A DNA stretch of 56,369 nt, filler included, from Jimgerdemannia flammicorona (GCA_003990765.1; 3 parts of 3 records of this genome joined end to end with filler, not necessarily neighbours in it); one strand, 5' to 3'. Counted from the first letter of the whole stretch, positions 7,579 through 38,019 are shown. A program made the numbers and translations. The notes: a model not told the origin generated them from the letters alone.

Positions 7579-8519
7579 AAGCTTGCAGTGGTTTTGTTAT
7601 TAGAAATTCAATTACTGATAATATCTAAAAAAAAATATTATTAATAAGAAATCACAACAATTTATTTTATATTAAAAAAAATAAAATAAAATAATAAAGA
7701 TTTATACCTTTTTTTGCTCAAGACACTCAAAGATCCACTGAGGATATATGATATAAATATGCCATTTAATAGCATATTCATACTTCTTACTATTTAAATC
7801 TATAGCAAGAAGGTGTGTTGTTTGATGATAGTAGAGATCATCTTGAAATATTCCTCCAAAATGCTTTATAACTACTTTCAACATTTTTCGAAAATCTATG
7901 AAATGATAAATAAATAATTGCTTCAATTAGAATTCCACAACCTAAGCTGACCTGTAGACCCAGGGGTTTATAAAATCTGGAAAAATGACTGACCCTACAG
8001 TACAATGGACCCAAAAATGACCAACCTGGCTTTGAACCCAAATCTGTCTTTGAACCAAACCCGAACCCAAGGTTTGATCTGTTAATTTGAATCCAAACTT
8101 TTAAATTCGATTACTTGACGAAAACATGTCCAAATTTGGTGGTCTTTTGACCATGGGATTCGCCTAAATAAGGCGAATCCAAAACAGCAAAGATCATTGA
8201 ATTTGGACATGTTTTCGTCAAGTAATTGAATTCAAAGTTTGAATTCAAATTTCAGAATATAATCGAATTAATGGGTCAAACCTCAGATTCAGGTACAAAG
8301 ACAAGTTCAGATCAGGTTCAAAGATGGGTTTGGGTTCAAAGCTGGGTTGGCCATTTCTTGCATCTATTGTGCTGCAGGGTCAGCCATTTTCTGGGTCGTG
8401 TTTCAGGTTCTTCAGGTCAGGTTTGCAATGCTCTAGCTTCAATATATAAAATATATACCAGGTGTAGCTCCAGTGGTACAGATGGAAATGCTGCTGAGAA
8501 AGTTGTGAGGAATTGGCAT
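7579..8519 (-). CDS. Spliced BRCT-domain protein gene (5' exons; 3' part uncertain, possibly decayed)
   Basis: Exons 8519-8459 and 7895-7708 with a GT-AG intron give MPIPHNFLSSISICTTGATPDFRKMLKVVIKHFGGIFQDDL..TTHLLA..SKKYEYAIKWHIYIIYPQWIFECL, a canonical BRCT; a probable small third exon near 7625-7579. Confidence 0.7.
7928..8435. mobile_element. Palindromic (foldback) hAT-type MITE in the BRCT gene intron
   Basis: 8-bp TSD GCTTCAAT (7920-7927 and 8436-8443); TAG...CTA ends; the two arms are imperfect inverted repeats around the central hairpin GGATTCGCCT-AAATA-AGGCGAATCC. Confidence 0.85.
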
Positions 8520-8583
8520 AATTTGTAGAATGGACGGTGAGAAAGGTTGTATGTTTATTATTGATTGTAACGCCACATGATAT

Positions 8584-8629
8584 GGGGCGTGCTGCAACAA
8601 AACCAGACAAAGTGAACATTTGACGTCAC
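8584..8629 (+). repeat. Left TIR of the Sola-like element
   Basis: GGGGCGTGCTGCAACAAAACCAGACAAAGTGAACATTTGACGTCAC, preceded by ATAT. Confidence 0.9.
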
Positions 8630-8733
8630 AAACTGTGGCGTGTGTGATACGTCAATCGCGCAAATACACCACCCATTAAGCGTCAAGTTAAGTATACATT
8701 GAATTCTATGCCTTACGAACTCGGCGTTCAGTA

Positions 8734-8932
8734 GGCTTGTAAAGCCTGAGGGGATTCGCCTTCCATTAGGAGAGTGCGTCTTCTGCCTCTGTGTGTCGTC
8801 GCTGAATTGGCTGTATAGCGGCTTTCGAAAGATGCCTAAGGTTCTGGTTCTCTGATCCAATGTTTCCGGGGCTTGTAAAGCCTGAGGGGATTCGCCTTCC
8901 ATTAGGAGAGTGCGTCTTCTGCCTCTGTGTGT
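8734..8932 (+). repeat. Perfect 63-bp direct repeat pair
   Basis: GGCTTGTAAAGCCTGAGGGG...GCCTCTGTGTGT at 8734-8796 and 8870-8932. Confidence 0.9.
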
Positions 8933-9097
8933 TGCTAGGAAACAGCTGCATTCGTGTCCTTTATGGACTGATGTAGCGGTCTTGGTTGTCTGGAGGAAGT
9001 TTCGGGTCGAAATGGAAATGCTACTTCGTAAGATACAGAAAACATTCACTAACGGCTTTTTGATTAAATTTGCAACTATACAGCTCCAAAGCAATAG

Positions 9098-11558
9098 ATG
9101 GTTTGTATCAGTTAAATTTAACGGTTAAAATTTTGCTGCTATCGATTTTATTAACATATTGCTTCAATTTATATCACTAGGCAGATCCCGTTCAAATTTT
9201 AGAGGAGGTTTTGGCGAAAGGATGTGGCGCTGTAAAATTTTTCGGGAAGATCAATAGTTATTCATTTGCGCAAAAAGAACGGGCTGAAAAAGTCTTTCTT
9301 GACGCATTGAAGGAGATTGCATCAAGGAATGGAGAACAAGCTAAGAAAGCTAGAATTCTGCTTGACACATTCGATGACCACATTAACTCCACTCCTGTCC
9401 AACGATTTTGGGAAGAAGTACGTTTACGAAACGAGGAGGCTGCAACTCGTCGTGCCCAACTTATATTGGCTGAAAAAAAGGTGAGTAATAGGTCATCTTA
9501 AAATAGACCGCGAAGTAATCATTATTATATACTTATTTATTGTGAACTATCTAGAAACAACGGGTTTTCTGTATTGATTCCGATGTAGCAGAGGAGCATA
9601 TTAGTTCAAGTCATCGATTATTATCAGAATCAAAGGTTAGTAAATGCAGCATCTAGTGCTCCGATTGGTTGAGTCAACTATTGATTATTCTCCAATGTTA
9701 CAGGCCAGAGGAACTCCGTTTGATGTCTCTTTCGACGAATACGTTGATCTTGGCTTGGAACGAAAAAGGAAACACTCTGTTGATAATATCCCAAGTGATG
9801 AAGAGGATGGTGAAAACAGTGTCAAAGAAGTTACAAAAAATCACTTCGAATTTGGCAAAACTTCACCGGAGCCAGAGGAGCCTGCTGGCAGTTCGGAGGT
9901 CAATGCCATTTATCGGGCTTCAACCCCAAGCGGCGTAGTGCCGGCCAGTGGCACCATTCCACCGTTCTCTGTTGCCTCAACAAATATCACAGATGAAATT
10001 GCCACTGGCACTGACGAGGAAGAATTCAACAACGAGCACCGGGCTCTGTTCGTACATGCCTATGGTGAGCTCCTGGACGAGCACAAATGGCGTCTGCGCT
10101 CGGGCCGGGTTGTCGAAGACGTCATGTTTGAAAAAGGATTAAAGTTCAGATATGTTAGGTAGGTCAGGCAGCCATTCTGATCTATGACTATGGTTCAATC
10201 AATCTCACAGGGTATTTTGCCATTATTTCAGTAACATACATAGCTTTTGCTATGTTGCCGGGGACCCAAACATTACTGGACTTTTCACTCCCGAAGAACG
10301 GGAAGAGATTGAGGCAGAGCCGAAATCGATCCAGCCCTTCATTGCCAATGGCACGTTCCACAAATTTTACAACAAATTTGCATCTTGTGAGACGGCAAAC
10401 GATCTGCGAAAATTGCTTTATGGCACGAGCCATGAAGAGCTTTTGTCGGATGGCCCATTGCAAGGAGAATCCTGGCATTGCCAAATGTATCACGCCTTTT
10501 TGACAGACATGTAGGAAAATGTCATTCACGTTGTTTGCCTTGCATTGCATTCAGTCTATTTCTAATCATATCAAAGTCTGTTGCAGGACGGACGCATCGA
10601 TTGTTTCCGTGAGGACTTATCGGAGGCATGGCTATTGGCAAACCCATTCCATGTGCTTCAACTGATGTTCAATGACAAGAAAAACGTGTTTTTTTTGCCG
10701 TAAGTGCGGTTCTTTCCTGAGGCATGCATGTTTCTCCGGAGGCTGATGTGTACTGATATTATTGTTTGTAGCGGCGAGAAATGCGGCATTGCCGTCGGAG
10801 AGAGGAAAAACAAACAGAGGGCTTTGCCAGGAATGAAGGAAATGGCGAGGAAAGCTGTTGGCAAAAAGGGTGATGGCTATGTGCGGCTTTTCGATGGCAC
10901 TGCCAAAGACCTTGCGGCAACTGAAGCTGGTGCCCAATGGAAAGGAGCAAAGGGAACGAAACTGATGGTGGAGAGCTTGGGCACATTGCCAAAGGTGCTG
11001 CGTGACATCTGGATGAGCAACGTCCGACGTGCTGGGGAGAATGAACGCGTTTTGCGATCTCTTGCTGTGCCTGGCCTTGCCATATACGGACCAATGGTTG
11101 CGTTTCTCCTGCTTGACTCACCCAAGGGGTACGTAACGAGATGCTTTGTGAATGACTGGAAGGAGCTGTCTACGACAGTATCAAAAGAAACGCTCAAGGC
11201 CAATGGCAGAGTGTTTCTGGACTTCTTGCTGACACGGGTATGTATCCTGATGCCATTTTGTTTGGCTGTGTCATAATTCTTTTCTCAGATTGTCCGATAT
11301 CCGTCTTTGCTCAAATTGTTTCGAAATCCCCAGCTGCATGTACTCAGGAACGAGGATCTCATTGTTGGCAATGCCAAGTCATCCGAGGGCGAGGAGGAAG
11401 ACGAAGATCCGGGCCTGGCTTTGCTTCAGGAGTTTTCCTCTCCAAAAAGGGCTCCCTTGGCAATGCCATTGTCGCATCCGACGCCAAAGAGAAGGAAGGC
11501 GTCCGTTCCGGGCAATGCCTGCGAAAGGAGGCCATCCGCTTCAGGCAGTGCCATGTAA
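9098..11558 (+). CDS. Intact 8-exon gene, ~658 aa, with a C-terminal restriction-endonuclease-fold (PD-(D/E)XK-like, Crinkler-REase-type) domain
   Basis: Manual splicing of 9098-9100, 9181-9480, 9555-9635, 9704-10158, 10232-10510, 10577-10699, 10772-11237, 11289-11558 (all GT-AG) gives an open frame of 1977 nt; motifs KWRLRSGRVVEDVM, HSF, LSEAW, GEK..ERKNKQR, GKKGDGYVR..ATEAG..GTKL..LPKVLRD. Confidence 0.75.
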
Positions 11559-12188
11559 ATGTACCGCTTTGAGATCTCGTTTAGGACGTTGGTAACCATG
11601 TGGCCATAAAGCAGAAGAGTCGGGTCAATTGGAAAAGGAGATCATGTCTGTTTTGCACTTAAGAATTTGAACTCATGGAATACAGATCCCTTGCATTAAA
11701 TATAAATATTGTCGGATGCACTCTCCGAGTACACTAAAATCTTGATCTTTGCTGAGTCAGTATGTGGGCTCCAGATAAACAGTTTTATAGTCCGTATGCG
11801 CCAGACTACTCCTTTCTGCGTGTGGATAGAGCCTAAATCCTAAGTAGTTCCTAAGTCTTGATTGGACAACTCCTCTTGAGTTTCCTGGTCTTCAGTGCTT
11901 GAATCACAATAGCAAACACTCTTTTGTTTGGGCCAAGCAATAGCGAAGCTTTATTGAAAAGAAATAAAGAGATATTTATACTACTTGAAGGTAAACTCAC
12001 TCCTAACAAAATAAGAAAATAGCGCAACAGTGGCATTATGCCAGGACATGGTGTGAGGACATGGACCATGCCATTTTTGGATAAGTATATATAAAATTGA
12101 GATAAAAATAGAAAATTCAACCGCAATACCACAATATCTTAGCGATTGTCAATTTGTACATGGACGAACGAATTCTTCGCAAATTCAA

Positions 12189-12625
12189 ATGGCTGGACCA
12201 ACGCGATCTTTACCTTACCGTCGATGTTATATAATGACGATGCCAAATGAACTGCTTTCAGAAATCTATGCCAGTTGCCGGGACACCTCATCGCAAAGCG
12301 CATTTCGCCAAACCTGCAGAGGATTTTACCAAGTATCACGGATACCAGTAGAGTCCGCATGCACATTGCACAATATCGTCTTGATGAATACAAGCAATCA
12401 GTTCGTCGGGTAAGTATATAGATTAATATACAGGTCGGAAGAACTAATCATATTTCCTTTATCTTCTAAGGTATACAAAATAAATGACTACGTCGTCCAC
12501 CATGCTGCAAAGCTAGGAGATGTCAATGTTGTCCACCTATTACTGCAAAGCAACCCGATCCTTACTACTTTACCGACAGGATGGACTCGGAGGTTGCCCG
12601 TTCACTGCTCACAAAGTGTGCATTT
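12189..12625 (+). pseudogene. F-box-like + ankyrin-repeat gene fragment
   Basis: MPNELLSEIY..FRQTCRGFY (F-box-like); intron 12410-12470; then VVHHAAKLGDVNVVHLLLQ (ankyrin-like); needs a frameshift near 12345 and is truncated. Confidence 0.55.
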
Positions 12626-13126
12626 TTAATGCTGACCAGTGCCTCGACCTTATCGCGCAAATTTGCGCACTCGGTGTCAAGCTGATGCGCAAAACCGAGC
12701 CTTCACTGTGCAAAGATATATATAAACCATAATATGCTATATGTCACGAATTCAATTTGAATATATGCTTGAACAGCTCCCACTCTCTCTTCAATTCTTC
12801 TCCGTCCAGCAGCCGATCTCCATTGCCGCGCGCATTGCCATAGTAAAAAGCATGTCATAGAACCAAAAGGAGCATAGCAAATTTGCGCACTGTTCTGTCT
12901 TGGGGTGCGCAAAAGTAGAAGGTTGTGCGCATTTCTGAGCACTCTGCACATAGATTTTTGGCACTGATGTTGACCCACGTTCCCCCAGATGTGCCTACGT
13001 CACCGCACTGCCAAAGTTGCCCTGAAGTATATACTATGTCACGGTTCCACCTGCAGGCGGCCTTGTTACGGAGGGGCGGGGAGGCTGAATAAGTAAAATC
13101 TCAGCAGATCCCGATCCAGCAGACTT

Positions 13127-13197
13127 TCCTCAATGGTCTAGTGGTCTCTAATCGCTGATAGTAAAAGGAGCGGGCGTTCGATTCCTTAGCATGAAAA
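13127..13197 (+). other. Degenerate tRNA-like / Pol III type-2 promoter (A and B boxes)
   Basis: TGGTCTAGTGG (13134-13144) and GTTCGATTCC (13176-13185) at tRNA-like spacing, followed by an A-run; stems pair poorly. Confidence 0.35.
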
Positions 13198-13796
13198 AAA
13201 AACCTCTTTTGTACCGCCACCACAGTGCGGTTGAGAGGACCAACGTATAGAATTTATCGCTGCCGTGTTGAAAGCTAGGTGAAAAAATCTCGTATGAGAT
13301 AGGAGGCACATTTTATATCAGAGTATCTTTTGAAAAATACTGCTGCCAGTACTATTAATAGCTGTTAGACCTATTTCACCAAGCCTGGTTGCTTGACCAT
13401 TCCTGGGATCGTCTGTCGATTCACTACTCGATCCCTTCCTTCAACCACCCCAGACCCGGAAGGTCGGGACGCTGTGCAAAATCGCCCTGGACTTGATGTG
13501 TCGTCACAGCAATCTAGGGTGAAACCATACAACTCGGTCGCAACCCATTGTTCTCCAAATTGTATTGTTTGTATTGTATCGATTGTACAATAACACAATT
13601 GGCCCTCTCGCCTGCGCATTCCCCGCGGCGAGCTCGGTCTGGGAAGCACGTTCCCATCTCCAAACACGTCGCTCACATGATGGTTCGGACATTATACATT
13701 TCATCATTAGACATTGATTGATATTGAGGTAGAACTGGCGCACAGCCGTTGTAAAAGATAAACTGGCATACGACTATCCCTATGTAAATATATAAT

Positions 13797-15982
13797 ATGA
13801 AACTAGTTTACATCAAGTCCACTATGGAACCAAAAAACTATAGTACCATCAGAAGCATTTTGAAACAAGAACAAGGCGAGAAAATTGCTCTGTATGTTTT
13901 CAAAGTATCTGACACCAAAGCTATTCAAGAATACTTGGATAAAGAGAGAATTACCTACGAAATTTACCAACAACTATATGTCAATTCTAATAATAGCATA
14001 AATAACACTCATCAAGAAGATATTTCTGGATGAAGCCAACAAGAATTGAATTCTAAGAAGTGAGAATTAGTAACATCCCAAGAGCCTAGGAAAAAAAGAA
14101 AAACCTCTGACAAGTAGAATATTACAGGTATAATATAGGAGAATTCCTATGTATATTCTTTAATATGCTCTGTGGAAGAAATTTTACAAAATCAGACAAA
14201 CTGTGCATAATATATATATAAAATATATATATATAGTAGATGACATAATTGTGAACGAATACAAAAAAGCTCTCCATTTCCTGGAAGCGGGATGTGGTTG
14301 CAGTTGCTTGACTAAGATGCCCAAAGAAGAATTTGCCAAACTGCGGGAAGATTTTCAAGCGCTAACAAAACCCAAACAAGATATCTTTTTAATGGCCCAA
14401 CTCAAGACCATGGATGGAGGAGTGACCAATACTAGCTGTTATCTTAAAAAGAAAGCTCGCGTCAATAAGAGAACTGTCTACTGCTGAAATCATAGCACTC
14501 CGATTTGCCAAAAAACTTACCTCAATATACTTGGCATTGGCTGCAATTATATATTTTGAAAACATTCGAAATTATTTATTAAAGAATGGTCTTCTACCAC
14601 AGGTCCATGGTAATATAAAAAGAATGTCACAGTGAAAATCCAGGATGGTTATCAATATTAATGTTGCTACTGCTGTCAAGAATTTTTTGCTAAATTATGC
14701 CAAAGTTCACAGCTTACCTAGCCCAGTAAGAAATGTTAATCGAGTCACCCTATCAATTATCTTTCTACCAGCAGAAATGAGCTACAGGTCTGTTTACTGG
14801 GATTTTTTAGTTAGCTTAGAAGAAGATAGCACTCTATACGTACTCAAATATGATACCTTCTGTAAATTATAGTACCAGTTAACCCTGTATATTCAAATCA
14901 TGAGTCCGAGGACCAATTTATGTGATACTTGCCAGCATTTGTGAAATGACTTACAGTTCAAAGCTCATAAAGAGGAAGAGGCCCAAGATTTATTAAAGAA
15001 ATATAAAGAGCATCTGGCCAAAGCCAAACTAGAGAGAAATTATTATAACAGGAATACCAAGCTAGCAGAAGAGCAAAGAAAACTCATTGACCAAAATTAT
15101 TCTATACTAAAAGACAAAGCACCATACTGTAGCATTGATGCAGTGGCCCATTACAGTTATGATTGAGCTCAAAATATCCATGTGCCTCATTCAGATCAAT
15201 AGATCAGCAAGGTGTATTATCTTAGTACTTGTAAAGTGCACTTATTCGGTATCCAAGATGAAGTGGTCTGAGAGCAAATTAATTATATGCTAAATGAGAA
15301 TGAACTCCTCAGGAAAGGTCTGAATAGTACACTTAGTCTGGTCTTTGATGGGATTAAGCAGTTGAATAAAGGTGAAAAGCACTTAAAAATCACTTGTGAC
15401 AATGTGGGTATACAAAACAAAAACAATATCACTCTTTGGTTTTACTTATATTTGGTAATAAGTGGTTATTATGAAAGTATTGAATTGAACTTCATGGTTC
15501 CAGGCCATACCAAATTTAAGTGTGATGGTAGCTTCAGATTAATTAAAAGGCTTTATCGCAAGACTACAGTAGATTGTGTAGATCATGTCATTAACGTGGT
15601 AAAAAGGTCTAGCCTCACCGGACTAAATAAAGCTCGACATTATAATAGTAATGAAGGGTTTCAATATTATAACATCATAAGCAGCCTAGAAATTTATTTT
15701 AAAAAATTGCCTGGCATGCAAAAGTTTCAGCACTTTTTTTTCACCAGTGCTAATCCTGGAATAATCAAAGTCCAAGTAGTCGCAAATGGTCCTTTCTAGG
15801 AATTCAAGTTATTGAAGACTAAATCTGCAATTTCTCGACTTATAGAAAAAATCAAAGCTTTGTCATTTTCAGTACTTAAATCTGTTTCTATGGAATTAAA
15901 ACACCAGGAGTATCTCTATCACAATATTCACCCCTTTGTTTGAGATGAATTTAAAGATATTACTTGTCCCAAGCCAGCATAG
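13797..15982 (+). pseudogene. Sola-type DDE transposase, disrupted
   Basis: GCGCSC, PICQKTYLNILGI, PQVHGN, LPSP, LCDTCQ, HYSYD*AQN, CDNVGIQNKNN, FMVPGHTKFKCDGSF, ending DITCPKPA; stops and frameshifts including an (AT)n expansion near 14210. Confidence 0.85.
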
Positions 15983-16000
15983 AATGTCATTGAGTAATAA

Positions 16001-17667
16001 TTAACTTTTATTTCTTTTCTCTTTAACTAATAAGTAAATAGATATTCTAGCAATAATGGTTGAAACTAATCCTAAACTTATTTAAGGAGTTCAATTAAAT
16101 TGTTTTTCACTAGCTATTTAGACTTCTAGTCTAGCTAATTCTGCTCTTTTGTTTGCTAATTCTTGATTTTCAGTTTCAGTTTCAGTTCGATTGGTAATTC
16201 TTTCTAATTCTTTAATATTCTTTTCTAGTACTAGTTTAGCAGCTTCTTTTTCAGCCTCTTTTATTTTCTCAGGATGGTTTCTTCTTCATTCTTTCTAGGC
16301 TTCTTCTTTTTGTTCTAAATAATTTGGATCATTTTTTCATTCTGCATAATATATTTGGGAATCTCTTATTTTTAATGCCATTCTTTCATTTTCCATTGAA
16401 TCCACTAATTTACCTTTTTTAATTGGTCTATACTGTCTTCATCATTTGCACTACATGAATCTAGGAAATAGATTTACCATGAATTTAGAGTCTGGGTAAC
16501 TTTTTACATAATCAGGAATAACATTTAGTTCTTTTTTTCATGTTCTATAGGCTGATTCTCCAATTTGAGCTTTGATAGCAAAGTCATGACAATCTAAGGT
16601 ATTTTCACATTTTTCTATTAATTCTCGCAAGATATTATAAAGTTGAGATCAAGTTTCTTGATCAATGATATTGATATTATTGGGCAATTTCTCTTTCCTA
16701 GAGATAGCTATTATTCCAATTTCTTCATATAATCTAGCAACCAATTTGTCAGTTTGAGTAATAATTTTAGCTTGATTAGGTGGTAAAGCTTTTCGAATTT
16801 TCTTGGCTATTTTGGGGGTAGCTGGACTACCCATAATTCCACCTATTTCTCCTCAATCTTCTTGGTATTTAGGAATTACTCGCTTGTAAAAATGGGGTGA
16901 GTTTTGGTTCCCAAGTTGACCAATAGGGACACTAATAAGAAAACCAATTATTTTGTTAACTTGTTCTATTTTGCTAATTGTGTCTTTAAGTATGGGCAAG
17001 ATATCAGCTCATTCTTGCCAAGTTATCTCTCTGAGGTTTTTGGCATAGCATTTGGTAGAAATTGCTGAATGAGCTTTAGAGTTGGACCTTAAAACTGTAT
17101 CAGAATATACAGTTCCTCCTAAGTCACTAATTCATAACTTACTTTTTCCTTCTTCATGTACTTGAATATTATCACACATATGACAAACTAGTTCACTTTC
17201 TTCAGCATTTTTAGAGCAAATATAACTGGCAGTGTTATCTGGTTTTCAAGAAAAATGTTTATTTTACTCTCCACTTTTGATTTGTTGGTGACAATTCTGG
17301 CATTGGGAACATTTATGTCCCCGGCTGTCTTCATAAGCAGTGACATCTCAATCCAACATAATTCAGCATTGATTGCAACAGATGGTTATTTGATCTCATC
17401 TACCACTGCCTTTTTGATTAATAGTTCTATACCAAAAAGGTCAATCAAAATTTTCTTTATTTTTAGCCTTTTGCAAAGCTTGATTAAAAATCTTGATTTT
17501 ATTTCTCTCTCAATCTTTATTAGTATTGTTATCTAACTCTTTTTGCAGAAGAGTTTTGGTATATCCTCAATAACAAAACTCAATTCTTTCTTTTTCTTCT
17601 TGATCTCATCAATTGATAGTTAATCCTTCTTTTCTATTATTATAATTAAAACATTCTTTTTAGTCAT
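16001..17667 (-). pseudogene. ~555-codon gene in genetic code 4 (TGA=Trp); Mollicutes-endobacterium-like protein with Cys-rich N-terminus, coiled coil and C-terminal membrane anchor
   Basis: One frame over ~1.65 kb with 19 TGA, 2 TGG and only 5 internal TAA/TAG, each a single transition from a sense codon; no introns; ends ELANKRAELARLE..FNWTP*ISLGLVSTIIARISIYLLVKEKRNKS; the ATG at 17667 needs a 1-nt shift in an A-run. Confidence 0.8.
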
Positions 17668-17797
17668 AATATTTTTTTTATAAAAAAAAAAAAAAAAAGC
17701 TTCAATAATTAAAGAAATTAAAGAAGTGGAGAGAGTGTGGGGAAGAATAATAAAAAATTTACAGACAAAGCGAAAGTAAAGAAAACATGATACCTGA

Positions 17798-17843
17798 GTG
17801 ATGTCAAATGTTCACTTTGTCTGGTTTTATTGCAGCATGCCCC
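17798..17843 (-). repeat. Right TIR of the Sola-like element
   Basis: Reverse complement of 8584-8629, followed by ATAT (17844-17847). Confidence 0.9.
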
Positions 17844-18243
17844 ATATTACATATAGTTAACTATGATGTCACATGATATTAAAGGTAAATAAATAATGTA
17901 TTATATGTCCATAACTTCTTTTCTCCATACAGCAAGCATACCTCTTATAAAAAGCTTTGTATCTCTTTTCATTCCAGTTCTCTCTCAATATTACATATTG
18001 GATAGCTATATTAATATATTTCTCTATACCAGTGACCTTACTCTCTTGTTGAATTACTGGTGACCTTACCCTCTCGTTGAATACTACTGTTTACTGTATT
18101 GTACATAGAAACTGACTGTGCTATAACATGCAGTACTGCTGCCTTACAGATTTGTTATTTATTCTAATACATAATTCCTTTTATATATATTATCTGAATT
18201 CTATCTATTATTTATTCTATCAGATATATGGGTTGGTCACAAT

Positions 18244-18724
18244 TAGTGCTCTGCAAACCTGACCCGATTAACCTGAAACCCAACCCATAAAACAGCCAAC
18301 CCGGAATTAGACGTCACCCGTCTTTAACCCAACCCGGAATAATATGTCACCTGTCTTTAACCCGACCCGGAATAATATGTCACCCGTCTTTAACCCGACC
18401 CGGAATTTTACGTCACCCATCTTTAACCCGACCTGGAAACGTATGTCACCCGTCTTTAACCTGACCCAGAATTATACGTAACCCGTCTTTAACCCAACCC
18501 GAGAAATATACGTGACCCAATCCGAGAAATATACGTGACCCGACCTGAGAAATATATGTGACCCGACCCTGACCCATATTTAACCCGACACAGACCCGTC
18601 TTTAATCCGCCTTTAAGCTACAAGGCACCAAAAAAAATATATTGCACATCTAAGATATATATTTAGAATAAACAAACAGAAACATAATTAGGAATCAGAA
18701 ATCAAAATGAAATCGGAAATAAAT
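18244..18724 (+). mobile_element. End of a hAT-like element with ~32-bp subterminal tandem repeats, cut by the contig end
   Basis: Starts TAGTGCTCTGCAAACCTGACC, similar to the MITE terminus TAGAGCATTGCAAACCTGACC; repeats AACCCGACCCGGAATAATATGTCACCCGTCTTT. Confidence 0.65.
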
Positions 18725-37547: not shown

Positions 37548-37647
37548 NNNNNNNNNNNNNNNNNNNNNNNNNNNNNNNNNNNNNNNNNNNNTTAATTAAT
37601 TAANNNNNNNNNNNNNNNNNNNNNNNNNNNNNNNNNNNNNNNNNNNN
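37548..37647. other. Artificial contig spacer
   Basis: 44 N + TTAATTAATTAA + 44 N. Confidence 0.97.
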
Positions 37648-38019
37648 CCCCTCCCTAGGCTCGCCTTGCCCTTCCCCTCAGCAGCACCAGCCCTACCCCC
37701 AGCCGGCCACCCACTCCCCTTGACCTTGTCTGCAAAGCTCGGGAGCTCAGACTTTCCCCCATTGTCGCCAGCCGACCCTTGCCCACCAGCCCTGTCTCCT
37801 CCTCCACCCTGTCCTCCTGCCAGCAGGCCCCTCATACTTCCCCCCAAGCCAGGACCTCTCCCCACATGCTGCCATCCAAATGCTCCAGGGCCACCCTGCC
37901 CAGTATGCACCTCCGGATGCTTGTTGGTCGCCATGAAACTAGTAGCTTTTCTCCAGAAACTGTATCAAAAGTGTTGCCAAAGGTTTGTGTAACCTGAATG
38001 TTACCGGAGAAAGATGTGA
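37648..38019 (-). mobile_element. 5' end of an L1/Tx1-like LINE (5' UTR + ORF1 start)
   Basis: CTTTCTCCGGTAACATTCAGG matches ~20137; ORF MATNKHP..LPSFADKVK matches 20216-20548. Confidence 0.85.

Follow-up and report, generated by a model that had tools for sequence, protein, structure and literature searches.

Can one transposon hold together genes that were written for two domains of life? The question is raised by a 9.26-kb element in the fungus Jimgerdemannia flammicorona (GCA_003990765.1), which lies between terminal inverted repeats (TIRs) in a stretch of 56,369 nucleotides, hereafter the window, made up of three parts of three records of this genome joined end to end with filler. A sequence-only reading had taken the element for a Sola-like DNA transposon moving as one unit with a spliced fungal gene and with a gene that is readable only when TGA stands for tryptophan, i.e., in the genetic code (code 4) of the Mollicutes-related endobacteria (MRE) of Mucoromycota fungi, and had proposed it as a shuttle of genes between fungus and endosymbiont. 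According to the present analysis, the cut-and-paste DNA transposon copy in the right part of the element (13.7–17.85 kb) is dead. It comprises a small open reading frame (ORF), genes for a DDE transposase and a HIT-like protein, and the right TIR, and its lineage was most probably maintained in a genome reading TGA as Trp, that of MRE inside Mucoromycota fungi. It appears to be a eukaryotic-type transposon that was recoded for the endobacterial genetic code, is repeatedly linked with an endobacterial gene family and stands with exact ends in a fungal chromosome. We put the probability that a fungus-derived transposon lineage adapted to MRE and was then re-inserted into the host nucleus at about 0.55. 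The shuttle idea is plausible, and the core observation behind it was right and more far-reaching than claimed.

Transposase and HIT-like gene read with TGA as tryptophan

The transposase of the right module matches the Pfam family DUF7869 (PF25273) with an E value of 1.2e-16, and it is 83% identical over the DUF7869 part, and 78% over a longer alignment, to a metagenome protein of 589 amino acids (P0005). The AlphaFold model of the family, made with 80 sequences (pLDDT, the predicted local distance difference test, of 87.5), has a DDE/RNase-H-like fold, for which Foldseek matched IstA (E 8e-5), TnsB (7e-4), Mos1 and retroviral integrases. Across the 80 sequences E356 is invariant and D311 and D390 are nearly invariant, and we infer that these three are the catalytic residues. 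The transposase is therefore real, but the window copy is a pseudogene with one frameshift and nine in-frame stops. Neither does it behave as an ordinary fungal gene, since TGA stands at Trp positions. Two metagenome copies, L019 (329 codons) and L021 (228 codons), are interrupted in frame by TGA alone, at Trp312, Trp85 and Trp133 as in the window, while none of their 22 Gln and 34 Arg codons is a stop; a Rhizophagus protein (P0022) has Trp at position 312. The ratio of non-synonymous to synonymous substitution (dN/dS) between the copies is 0.07–0.30 in all 16 pairs compared, with dS of 1–3.3 in 11 of them. Because the transposase TGAs are shared with copies that diverged under purifying selection, the 4.1-kb right module reads as endobacterial code, and this would hold for the whole of it, the small ORF included. 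Translation of this DUF7869 subfamily with TGA as Trp is the simplest account of the sequences. As controls, the spliced fungal gene in the left part of the element uses seven TGG and no TGA in 638 codons, and four neighbouring retroelement ORFs have in-frame Trp as TGG only. Gene models of Ambispora and Diversispora (P0006, P0014, P0016 and P0018) omit exactly the stretches that hold the Trp positions in question, and in-frame TGA seems to be hidden as false introns in public annotations. The small ORF upstream of the transposase had no family match; its tail (EPRKKRKTSDK) resembles a eukaryotic nuclear localisation signal, which is odd for a bacterial-code gene.

The second gene, convergent with the transposase, had been described as an intronless ORF of 270 codons. 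That piece is part of a 548-codon frame (17659 to 16016), which aligns over 553 residues with a 565-aa ORF of the metagenome contig L001 at 51% identity and without a frameshift. The reading of TGA as Trp stood, whereas the extent of the gene did not, and with five premature TAA or TAG codons it is broken under code 4 too. A protein search returned four relatives among 411 candidates, all metagenomic, one of them a Pfam HIT match and one a named HIT-family hydrolase, and at all but one of the six TGA positions in the 270-codon piece Trp is found in one to four aligned relatives. In metagenome contigs, HIT-like relatives are encoded by 22 of 222 candidate stretches; the matched stretch is free of TAA and TAG in 18 of the 22, and 21 have in-frame TGA. 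Under code 4 the L001 gene runs for 565 codons (16 TGA, 3 TGG), and genes standing beside a transposase for 344 codons with 10 TGA (L002) and 312 codons with 7 TGA (L003). In the conserved Trp columns of the family, TGA and TGG occur in ratios of 20:3, 21:1, 10:9 and 19:0, and dN/dS is 0.12–0.45 in 10 pairs. No standard-code relative was found among the relatives recovered. That this ORF might have only standard-code eukaryotic homologues, an objection which the sequence-only reading itself had named, was checked, and the relatives are open only with TGA as Trp.

The family relation of this gene can be seen from profile matches to 3imi (E 1.3e-10) and, for the L001 ORF, to Pfam HIT (PF01230, E 1.5e-7). 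The profile is shared with HIT proteins, but the histidine triad is degenerate: an invariant PHFYxRxxPKY stands in place of HxHxHxx (HFHLHLIPRY in 3imi), leaving H-F-Y-x-R, with H124, F125, Y126 and R128 invariant in five of five aligned sequences. The protein is likely not a standard nucleotide hydrolase. A further difference from HIT proteins lies at the termini: in the window and in L001, a Cys/Trp-rich stretch of about 175 residues precedes the HIT core and a hydrophobic tail closes the protein, while at the other 20 loci (21 gene copies) the protein begins with the HIT core itself. Members of this expanded family evolve fast (dN 0.2–0.5).

Transposase and HIT-like gene belong together repeatedly. 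Seven of the 22 HIT-like loci carry the transposase beside the HIT-like gene, and two of these seven also the TIR; in L002, L003, L008, L015, L019 and L020 both genes read in the same direction, the transposase first, whereas in the window the two are convergent. In a tree of the family (21 rows; three short rows omitted), the genes linked to the transposon are spread over three or more separate branches, which fits repeated exchange inside a code-4 genome, and the window gene pairs with L001 (100/99). On an endobacterial contig (L012:2300-4518), two HIT-like paralogues lie in tandem, preceded by genes for a eukaryote-like protein kinase and a DNA methylase on the opposite strand.

Endobacterial relatives and the probable history of the lineage

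The longer contigs that hold HIT-like relatives are gene-dense under code 4 only. They encode PolC-type DNA polymerase III alpha, DnaJ, EngA, PNPase, HisRS, DnaK, Lon and IF-3, and also a eukaryote-like Tyr/Ser-Thr kinase and an Ulp1-type protease. HIT-like genes adjoin housekeeping genes, as in L001, where the neighbour is infC, and likewise in L007, L011 and L018. The best named matches of the IF-3 of L001 are Mycoplasmataceae bacterium RV_VA103A (56%) and Candidatus Moeniiplasma glomeromycotorum (57%). All 47 IF-3 matches above 40% identity are metagenome proteins, MRE records or one protein of a Cetraspora pellucida assembly, and the 46 matches below 40% include no named organism. From these sequences we conclude that the HIT-like family belongs to MRE, and the objection that the code-4 ORF has only eukaryotic homologues therefore falls.

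The transposase has another kinship. Those of its relatives that carry a name belong to Ambispora, Diversispora, Rhizophagus, Geosiphon and Gigaspora, apart from one mollusc and two records labelled as bacteria, and the core of P0005 is 39–41% identical to Rhizophagus proteins. The subfamily thus resembles the DUF7869 proteins of Glomeromycotina nuclei, but differs from them in using TGA for Trp and in forming a long-stemmed branch of its own. In a tree of 80 proteins (quick search, midpoint root), the subfamily and two Ambispora models are sister to the Rhizophagus and Gigaspora copies, and it stands on a stem of 0.88 inside a clade of 22 rows with support of 100. No match to the transposase was found in 72,556 plasmid and 50,697 phage records, which fits a fungal origin of the lineage, and viral contigs held neither a relative of the transposase nor a match to the TIR.

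As DUF7869 is otherwise eukaryotic and the nearest relatives are nuclear Glomeromycotina copies, the history would run as follows. A fungal transposon would have entered the endobacterium, where TGG was recoded to TGA and the element became linked with members of the expanded endobacterial HIT-like family. A copy would then have integrated into the fungal nuclear genome at an ATAT target, with exact TIR ends, and, being untranslatable in the nucleus, it would have degenerated through nonsense mutations, a frameshift and a surplus of C>T and G>A changes. Residence of the transposase in MRE, the directions of transfer and integration by transposition are all deduced here, whereas the code-4 nature of both genes, their relatives, their decay and the fungal gene are seen directly in the sequences.

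The decay itself is observed. Beyond the shared TGAs, the window transposase has TGA at three Arg codons, TAG at two Gln codons and one Trp codon, a frameshift and no start codon. In the window lineage 29 C>T or G>A changes stand against 19 in reverse, compared with 26 against 47 in five other lineages pooled (Fisher p 0.009), and G+C is 35% in the window transposase and 30% in the HIT-like gene, the metagenome copies having 36–40%. Such a state is what one would expect of a code-4 insert that had spent some time in nuclear DNA. Because both endobacterial-code genes are dead in it, the window copy is a relic and not a working shuttle. Nuclear copies of mitochondrial DNA (NUMTs) and Wolbachia inserts are organelle or endosymbiont DNA that lies dead and decaying in host nuclei. 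The likeness is that genes of another translation system are dead and decaying there and here; the difference is that the insert described here has exact transposon ends and a target duplication, which points to transposase-mediated entry rather than end-joining.

Several results weigh against endobacterial residence of the transposase. Endobacterial housekeeping genes were never seen as neighbours of the transposase, the seven transposase-bearing contigs being only 1.4–1.9 kb long, and there was none in the 15 contigs that do not have the transposase–HIT layout. The four protein-search matches of the HIT-like family include no named MRE genome record, and the family is absent from 185,579 GTDB species genomes; these also have no close relatives of the PNPase of the contigs, so close relatives of MRE seem to be missing from the collection, and little can be read from the blank. 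P0022 has no Trp at positions 85 and 133, and of the three positions only Trp312 is anchored by a standard-code relative. The transposase copies L019, L021 and L003 each have a frameshift of their own. Relatives also occur on fungal-named contigs, of 0.2–1.2 Mb in Geosiphon, which suggests many nuclear copies, and a cluster of relatives whose protein starts just after Trp133 lies on contigs of 37–84 kb, which suggests nuclear copies as well. Finally, none of the contigs listed from four sequencing runs bridges positions 8580, 13700 or 17847, although this is no evidence of absence: the runs were compared at 90% likeness, the best of them holds 0.22 of the sampled words and none holds half.

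It is already known that genes for kinases, leucine-rich repeat (LRR) proteins and others passed from fungi to MRE (PMC10507103), and that transposases make up 1–8% of the non-orphan genes of MRE (PMC4916391). The contigs described here, with their eukaryote-like kinase and Ulp1 protease, agree with this picture of fungus-derived genes and many mobile elements. The accessible parts of these two papers deal with single genes, insertion sequence (IS) elements, phages and conjugative elements, and they mention neither a TIR transposon of eukaryotic type within MRE nor the return of an MRE-coded element to a fungal nucleus. In the accessible part of PMC5982333 the bacterial gene donors found for Rhizophagus are not MRE. 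The literature searched, outside the scope of which lay the founding MRE genome papers and a review of MRE mobile elements, contains no description of such an element. If endobacterial residence is true, a eukaryotic cut-and-paste element would be working in a bacterium, and there would be a concrete, testable mechanism for two-way transfer between domains. The TGA codons are a marker that tells endobacterial from nuclear DNA in mixed assemblies, and eukaryotic gene predictors bury the TGA codons of such copies in false introns. The inactivated window copy, with a functioning fungal gene as its neighbour, gives a hint of the way in which DNA may move between fungus and endobacterium.

The fungal part, the element ends and the rival explanations

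The left 5.1 kb of the element are fungal DNA. The spliced gene found there maps at about 100% by tblastn to P0270, a 642-aa protein of J. flammicorona in NCBI, and contigs of run X2 are without six of its introns, while contigs of run X4 are without five of these and without the upstream intron 9100-9179, all with GT..AG borders. It follows from these intron-free contigs that the gene is expressed and spliced, and it is intact, as had been claimed. A nuclease fold had also been assigned to it, and this is plausible for the C-terminal domain: VIA-align gave Z 9.8 to the nuclease domain of DrdV (root-mean-square deviation 3.5, 143 aligned), 9.1 to BpuSI and 7.4 to TT1808, and D447, E464 and K476, which are nearly invariant in 68 sequences, may correspond to the D...E...K of the PD-(D/E)xK motif. 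On the other side, a plain Foldseek search with the model gave no match at E<=0.001, and Pfam gave no significant match in 11 proteins of the family scanned, with one sub-threshold Endonuclease_1 match. A library-wide search found 138 relatives of the protein, and those looked up were of chytrids and Entrophospora. P0270, from Endogonales, falls into one 90%-identity cluster with P0132, a partial protein of Paraglomus occultum (Glomeromycotina), and such near-identity across subphyla suggests either horizontal spread of the gene or cross-contaminated assemblies. Further right, the F-box/ankyrin fragment of the sequence-only reading was retained as a weak candidate for its F-box half (F-box-like_2, E 0.0044, 17.5 bits, under the cut-off of 21.6); a Pfam scan of the window gave no ankyrin match.

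The ends of the element, as had been predicted, are a pair of 46-bp TIRs with ATAT on both outer sides. The arms are identical in 43 of 46 positions, the three mismatches all being transitions with the A/T allele in the right arm, and together with the ATAT flanks they give 50 nt of 94% complementarity. A metagenome copy (L015) ends in an identical sequence, with 41 of 41 positions over window 8579-8619 including the flank. Since ATAT also flanks this copy, and ATCT a second one closed by the same end sequence (L020), ATAT is a preferred target and hence weak proof of a single insertion, so that the matching flanks in the window say little on whether one event made both ends. The left TIR is found in many contigs of runs X1 and X2 with differing flanks, and its outer and inner sequences are many and different there, with 20 and 13 loose ends in X1. 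The connection of the left TIR with this fungal segment recurs in X1, with 8649-8993 inverted there (joints 8644 or 8649 to 8994), and in other X1 contigs the TIR is connected with interior positions of the element (8615 to 15502, and 8624 to 17814). The X1 contig that holds 11764-13308 runs 3.7 kb further into sequence unlike the module of the window. Both the TIR and the region 13596-13926 are repeated in other runs, and 15913-17567 and 17899-18200 have no coverage in the four runs, which again is no evidence of absence. With ATAT as the common target and a TIR that is met in so many contexts, movement of the element as one unit with both cargoes, in which the fungal 5.1 kb would have travelled with the module, is no more than a candidate reading. 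A candidate for a second, degenerate left TIR near 13.7–14.2 kb was rejected: its best local score was 30–32 against 22–26 in five shuffles, and it is not significant because unrelated retroelements of the window score equally.

With these data the other explanations can be weighed. A single 9.26-kb mobile unit shuttling between endobacterium and fungal nucleus, with the spliced nuclease-like gene serving the fungus and the transposase and HIT-like gene serving the bacterium, is favoured by the single TIR pair with ATAT on both sides that encloses both parts, by the outer inverted pair (8377-8435 and 18244-18302), which a single insertion into an older structure would be expected to leave, by the renewed joining of the left TIR to the fungal segment in X1, by the cluster shared with P. 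occultum as a sign of horizontal spread, and by a Geosiphon protein which fuses the transposase C-terminus to another MRE-type ORF. However, the flanks are no proof of a single event, the TIR has many different neighbours, the X1 contig leaves the fungal segment for foreign sequence, composition changes sharply at 13.7 kb, none of the seven metagenome copies (all short) has the fungal gene, and both code-4 genes are dead in the window. We hold this unit to be unlikely; a two-host transposon, with an intron-bearing, standard-code set for the fungus and a TGA=Trp set (transposase, small ORF with its tail like a nuclear localisation signal, HIT-like gene) for the bacterium, is doubtful to the same degree. 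If true, it would be a standing vehicle for two-way gene traffic between a eukaryote and a bacterial endosymbiont. An assembly artefact or contamination, by which the endobacterial 4.1-kb module was joined to fungal DNA at repeats (the TIR and about 13.6–13.9 kb), strikes us as rather improbable. It would need two separate false joins, of which one would have to fall precisely on the end of a TIR flanked by ATAT, and an artefact would not lead one to expect that the window is more decayed than the metagenome copies (six extra stops and a frameshift in the transposase, five TAA or TAG in the HIT-like gene), that its lineage has an excess of C>T and G>A, or that related copies lie on the long Geosiphon contigs. 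It draws its strength from the repetition of both candidate joining regions in other runs, from a scaffold gap near 37.6 kb in the window, from joins that find no support among the contigs of the runs compared, and from MRE contigs in 19 of 389 fungal assemblies, a count given in the accessible part of PMC11423566.

The history might also be nuclear only: an MRE gene would have been captured in the nucleus, and the TGAs would be inherited nonsense in non-autonomous copies mobilised in trans by a relative with the standard code. The X1 joints from the TIR to inner points do resemble deletion derivatives of eukaryotic DNA transposons, fungal-named relatives are many, and L019, L021 and L003 carry frameshifts. 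Nevertheless, the TGA copies diverged under strong purifying selection, with TGA at the same Trp positions and no other stop, the HIT-like genes beside the transposase in L002 and L003 are open only under code 4, and the transposase-linked HIT-like genes lie on several branches of an endobacterial family; this makes a purely nuclear family quite improbable. As to G>A hypermutation of TGG to TGA in a standard-code gene, with no alternative code at all, it would account for the window stops at Arg (CGA>TGA, three times) and Gln (CAR>TAG, twice) and for TIR mismatches that are all transitions. It was rejected as the source of the TGAs, and we see hardly any chance for it, as the HIT-like relatives have long ORFs on bacterial contigs, free of TAA and TAG and with as many as 16 TGA, open under code 4 and next to housekeeping genes, TGA and TGG interchange in conserved Trp columns, and L019 and L021 have TGA at Trp positions only. 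We therefore keep to the fungus-derived lineage that adapted to MRE and returned to the nucleus.

Classification, coordinates and surroundings

The assignment to Sola2 is not supported by the sequences compared. A 4-bp AT-rich target duplication, as stated for Sola2 in the accessible part of PMC3627910 (AWWT, ATAT among them), is indeed present as ATAT on both sides, and the GGGGCG start of the TIR would fit GRG, the start that the sequence-only reading gives for Sola2 ends. However, against the 117 elements of file S2 of PMC3627910 (including DFa-2 and PPa-1/4/5), the best tblastn match had an E value of 0.26, and a profile of 104 DUF7869 proteins had no match at E<=10 in 5,222 six-frame ORFs. 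The element seems to work like a DDE cut-and-paste transposon with 4-bp AT-rich duplications. Sola3 can serve as a lead only: 637 copies are given for Rhizophagus, alone among fungi, in the accessible part of PMC5751038, which fits the many Rhizophagus matches of DUF7869. A close parallel in architecture, described in PMC3627910, is Sola2 with a captured Fanzor1 in Dictyostelium and Polysphondylium. Both are TIR-bounded, cut-and-paste and AT-rich in their 4-bp duplications, and both are chimeric, with one end in common and captured genes of bacterial ancestry differing at the other; the Sola2–Fanzor1 TIRs are 12–21 bp long against 46 bp here, and here transposase and cargo use TGA for Trp.

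Coordinates of all features are collected in Table 1.

Table 1. Features of the element and its flanks, in positions of the window (TIR, terminal inverted repeat; ORF, open reading frame).
Feature	Position	Strand	Detail or basis
Element between inverted ends	8584..17843		9.26 kb; ends and flanks compared
Left ATAT flank (target-site duplication or preferred target)	8580..8583		sequence
Left TIR, 46 bp	8584..8629	+	starts GGGGCG; arm pairing
Segment inverted in run X1 contigs, left TIR still attached	8649..8993		joints 8644->8994, 8649->8994 (opposite strands)
Spliced fungal gene, standard code, 642 aa	8903..11558	+	putative C-terminal restriction-endonuclease-like domain; tblastn, spliced contigs
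Introns of spliced fungal gene	9100-9179, 9480-9554, 9634-9701, 10157-10229, 10511-10576, 10700-10771, 11237-11332
Stop codon of spliced fungal gene	11556		TAA
Possible F-box-like/ankyrin-like gene fragment (weak)	12057..12629	+	F-box-like_2 below cut-off
Composition break	13700..13750		G+C 45% left (8630-13700), 32% right (13701-17797)
Small ORF open only with TGA=Trp, 106 aa	13797..14117	+	2 TGA; ends EPRKKRKTSDK
DDE transposase pseudogene (Pfam DUF7869)	14245..15979	+	Pfam, model, alignments
Transposase stops at Trp			TGA at Trp85, Trp133, Trp312; TAG at Trp212
Transposase stops at other residues			TAG at Gln324, Gln523; TGA at Arg236, Arg347, Arg572
Transposase frameshift	near 14530		start codon lost
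HIT-like gene, endobacterial type	16004..17659	-	548 codons in one frame, 19 TGA, 2 TGG; alignment to relatives
Premature stops in HIT-like gene	17266, 16453, 16297, 16120, 16084		TAA, TAG, TAG, TAA, TAA
Right TIR, 46 bp	17798..17843	-	arm pairing
Right ATAT flank	17844..17847		sequence
Predicted empty site of element			...CACATG-ATAT-TACATATAG...

A few further observations concern single parts of the element. Within the 345-bp segment 8649-8993, which separates the left TIR from the first exon of the fungal gene, a 63-bp sequence occurs twice in direct orientation without a mismatch (8734-8796 and 8870-8932). In Geosiphon pyriformis, the protein P0024 has the C-terminus of the transposase subfamily fused to a homologue (E 3e-12) of the ORF L011:2547-3278, which sits just upstream of a HIT-like gene on an endobacterial contig, and other transposon copies seem to carry other endobacterial cargo.

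The surroundings in the window are eukaryotic and rich in mobile elements, with reverse transcriptase (RT), RNase H and integrase of a long terminal repeat (LTR) retroelement and a non-LTR RT. The insertion site has palindromic repeats on its left and tandem repeats of about 66 bp (CCCGTCTTTAACCCGACCCGGAA...) on its right (7982-8435 and 18244-18560), and the inverted pair that brackets the element outside its ends resembles a foldback or satellite structure. Ten bases, CACATGATAT, at 8574-8583 recur at 17871-17880, 27 nt outside the right TIR, either by chance or as a trace of an older event. A run of N at 37600-37650 marks the scaffold gap, and the gag/protease region of a retroelement is present in two diverged copies of opposite orientation, at 43.5–45.9 kb and 52.3–54.3 kb.

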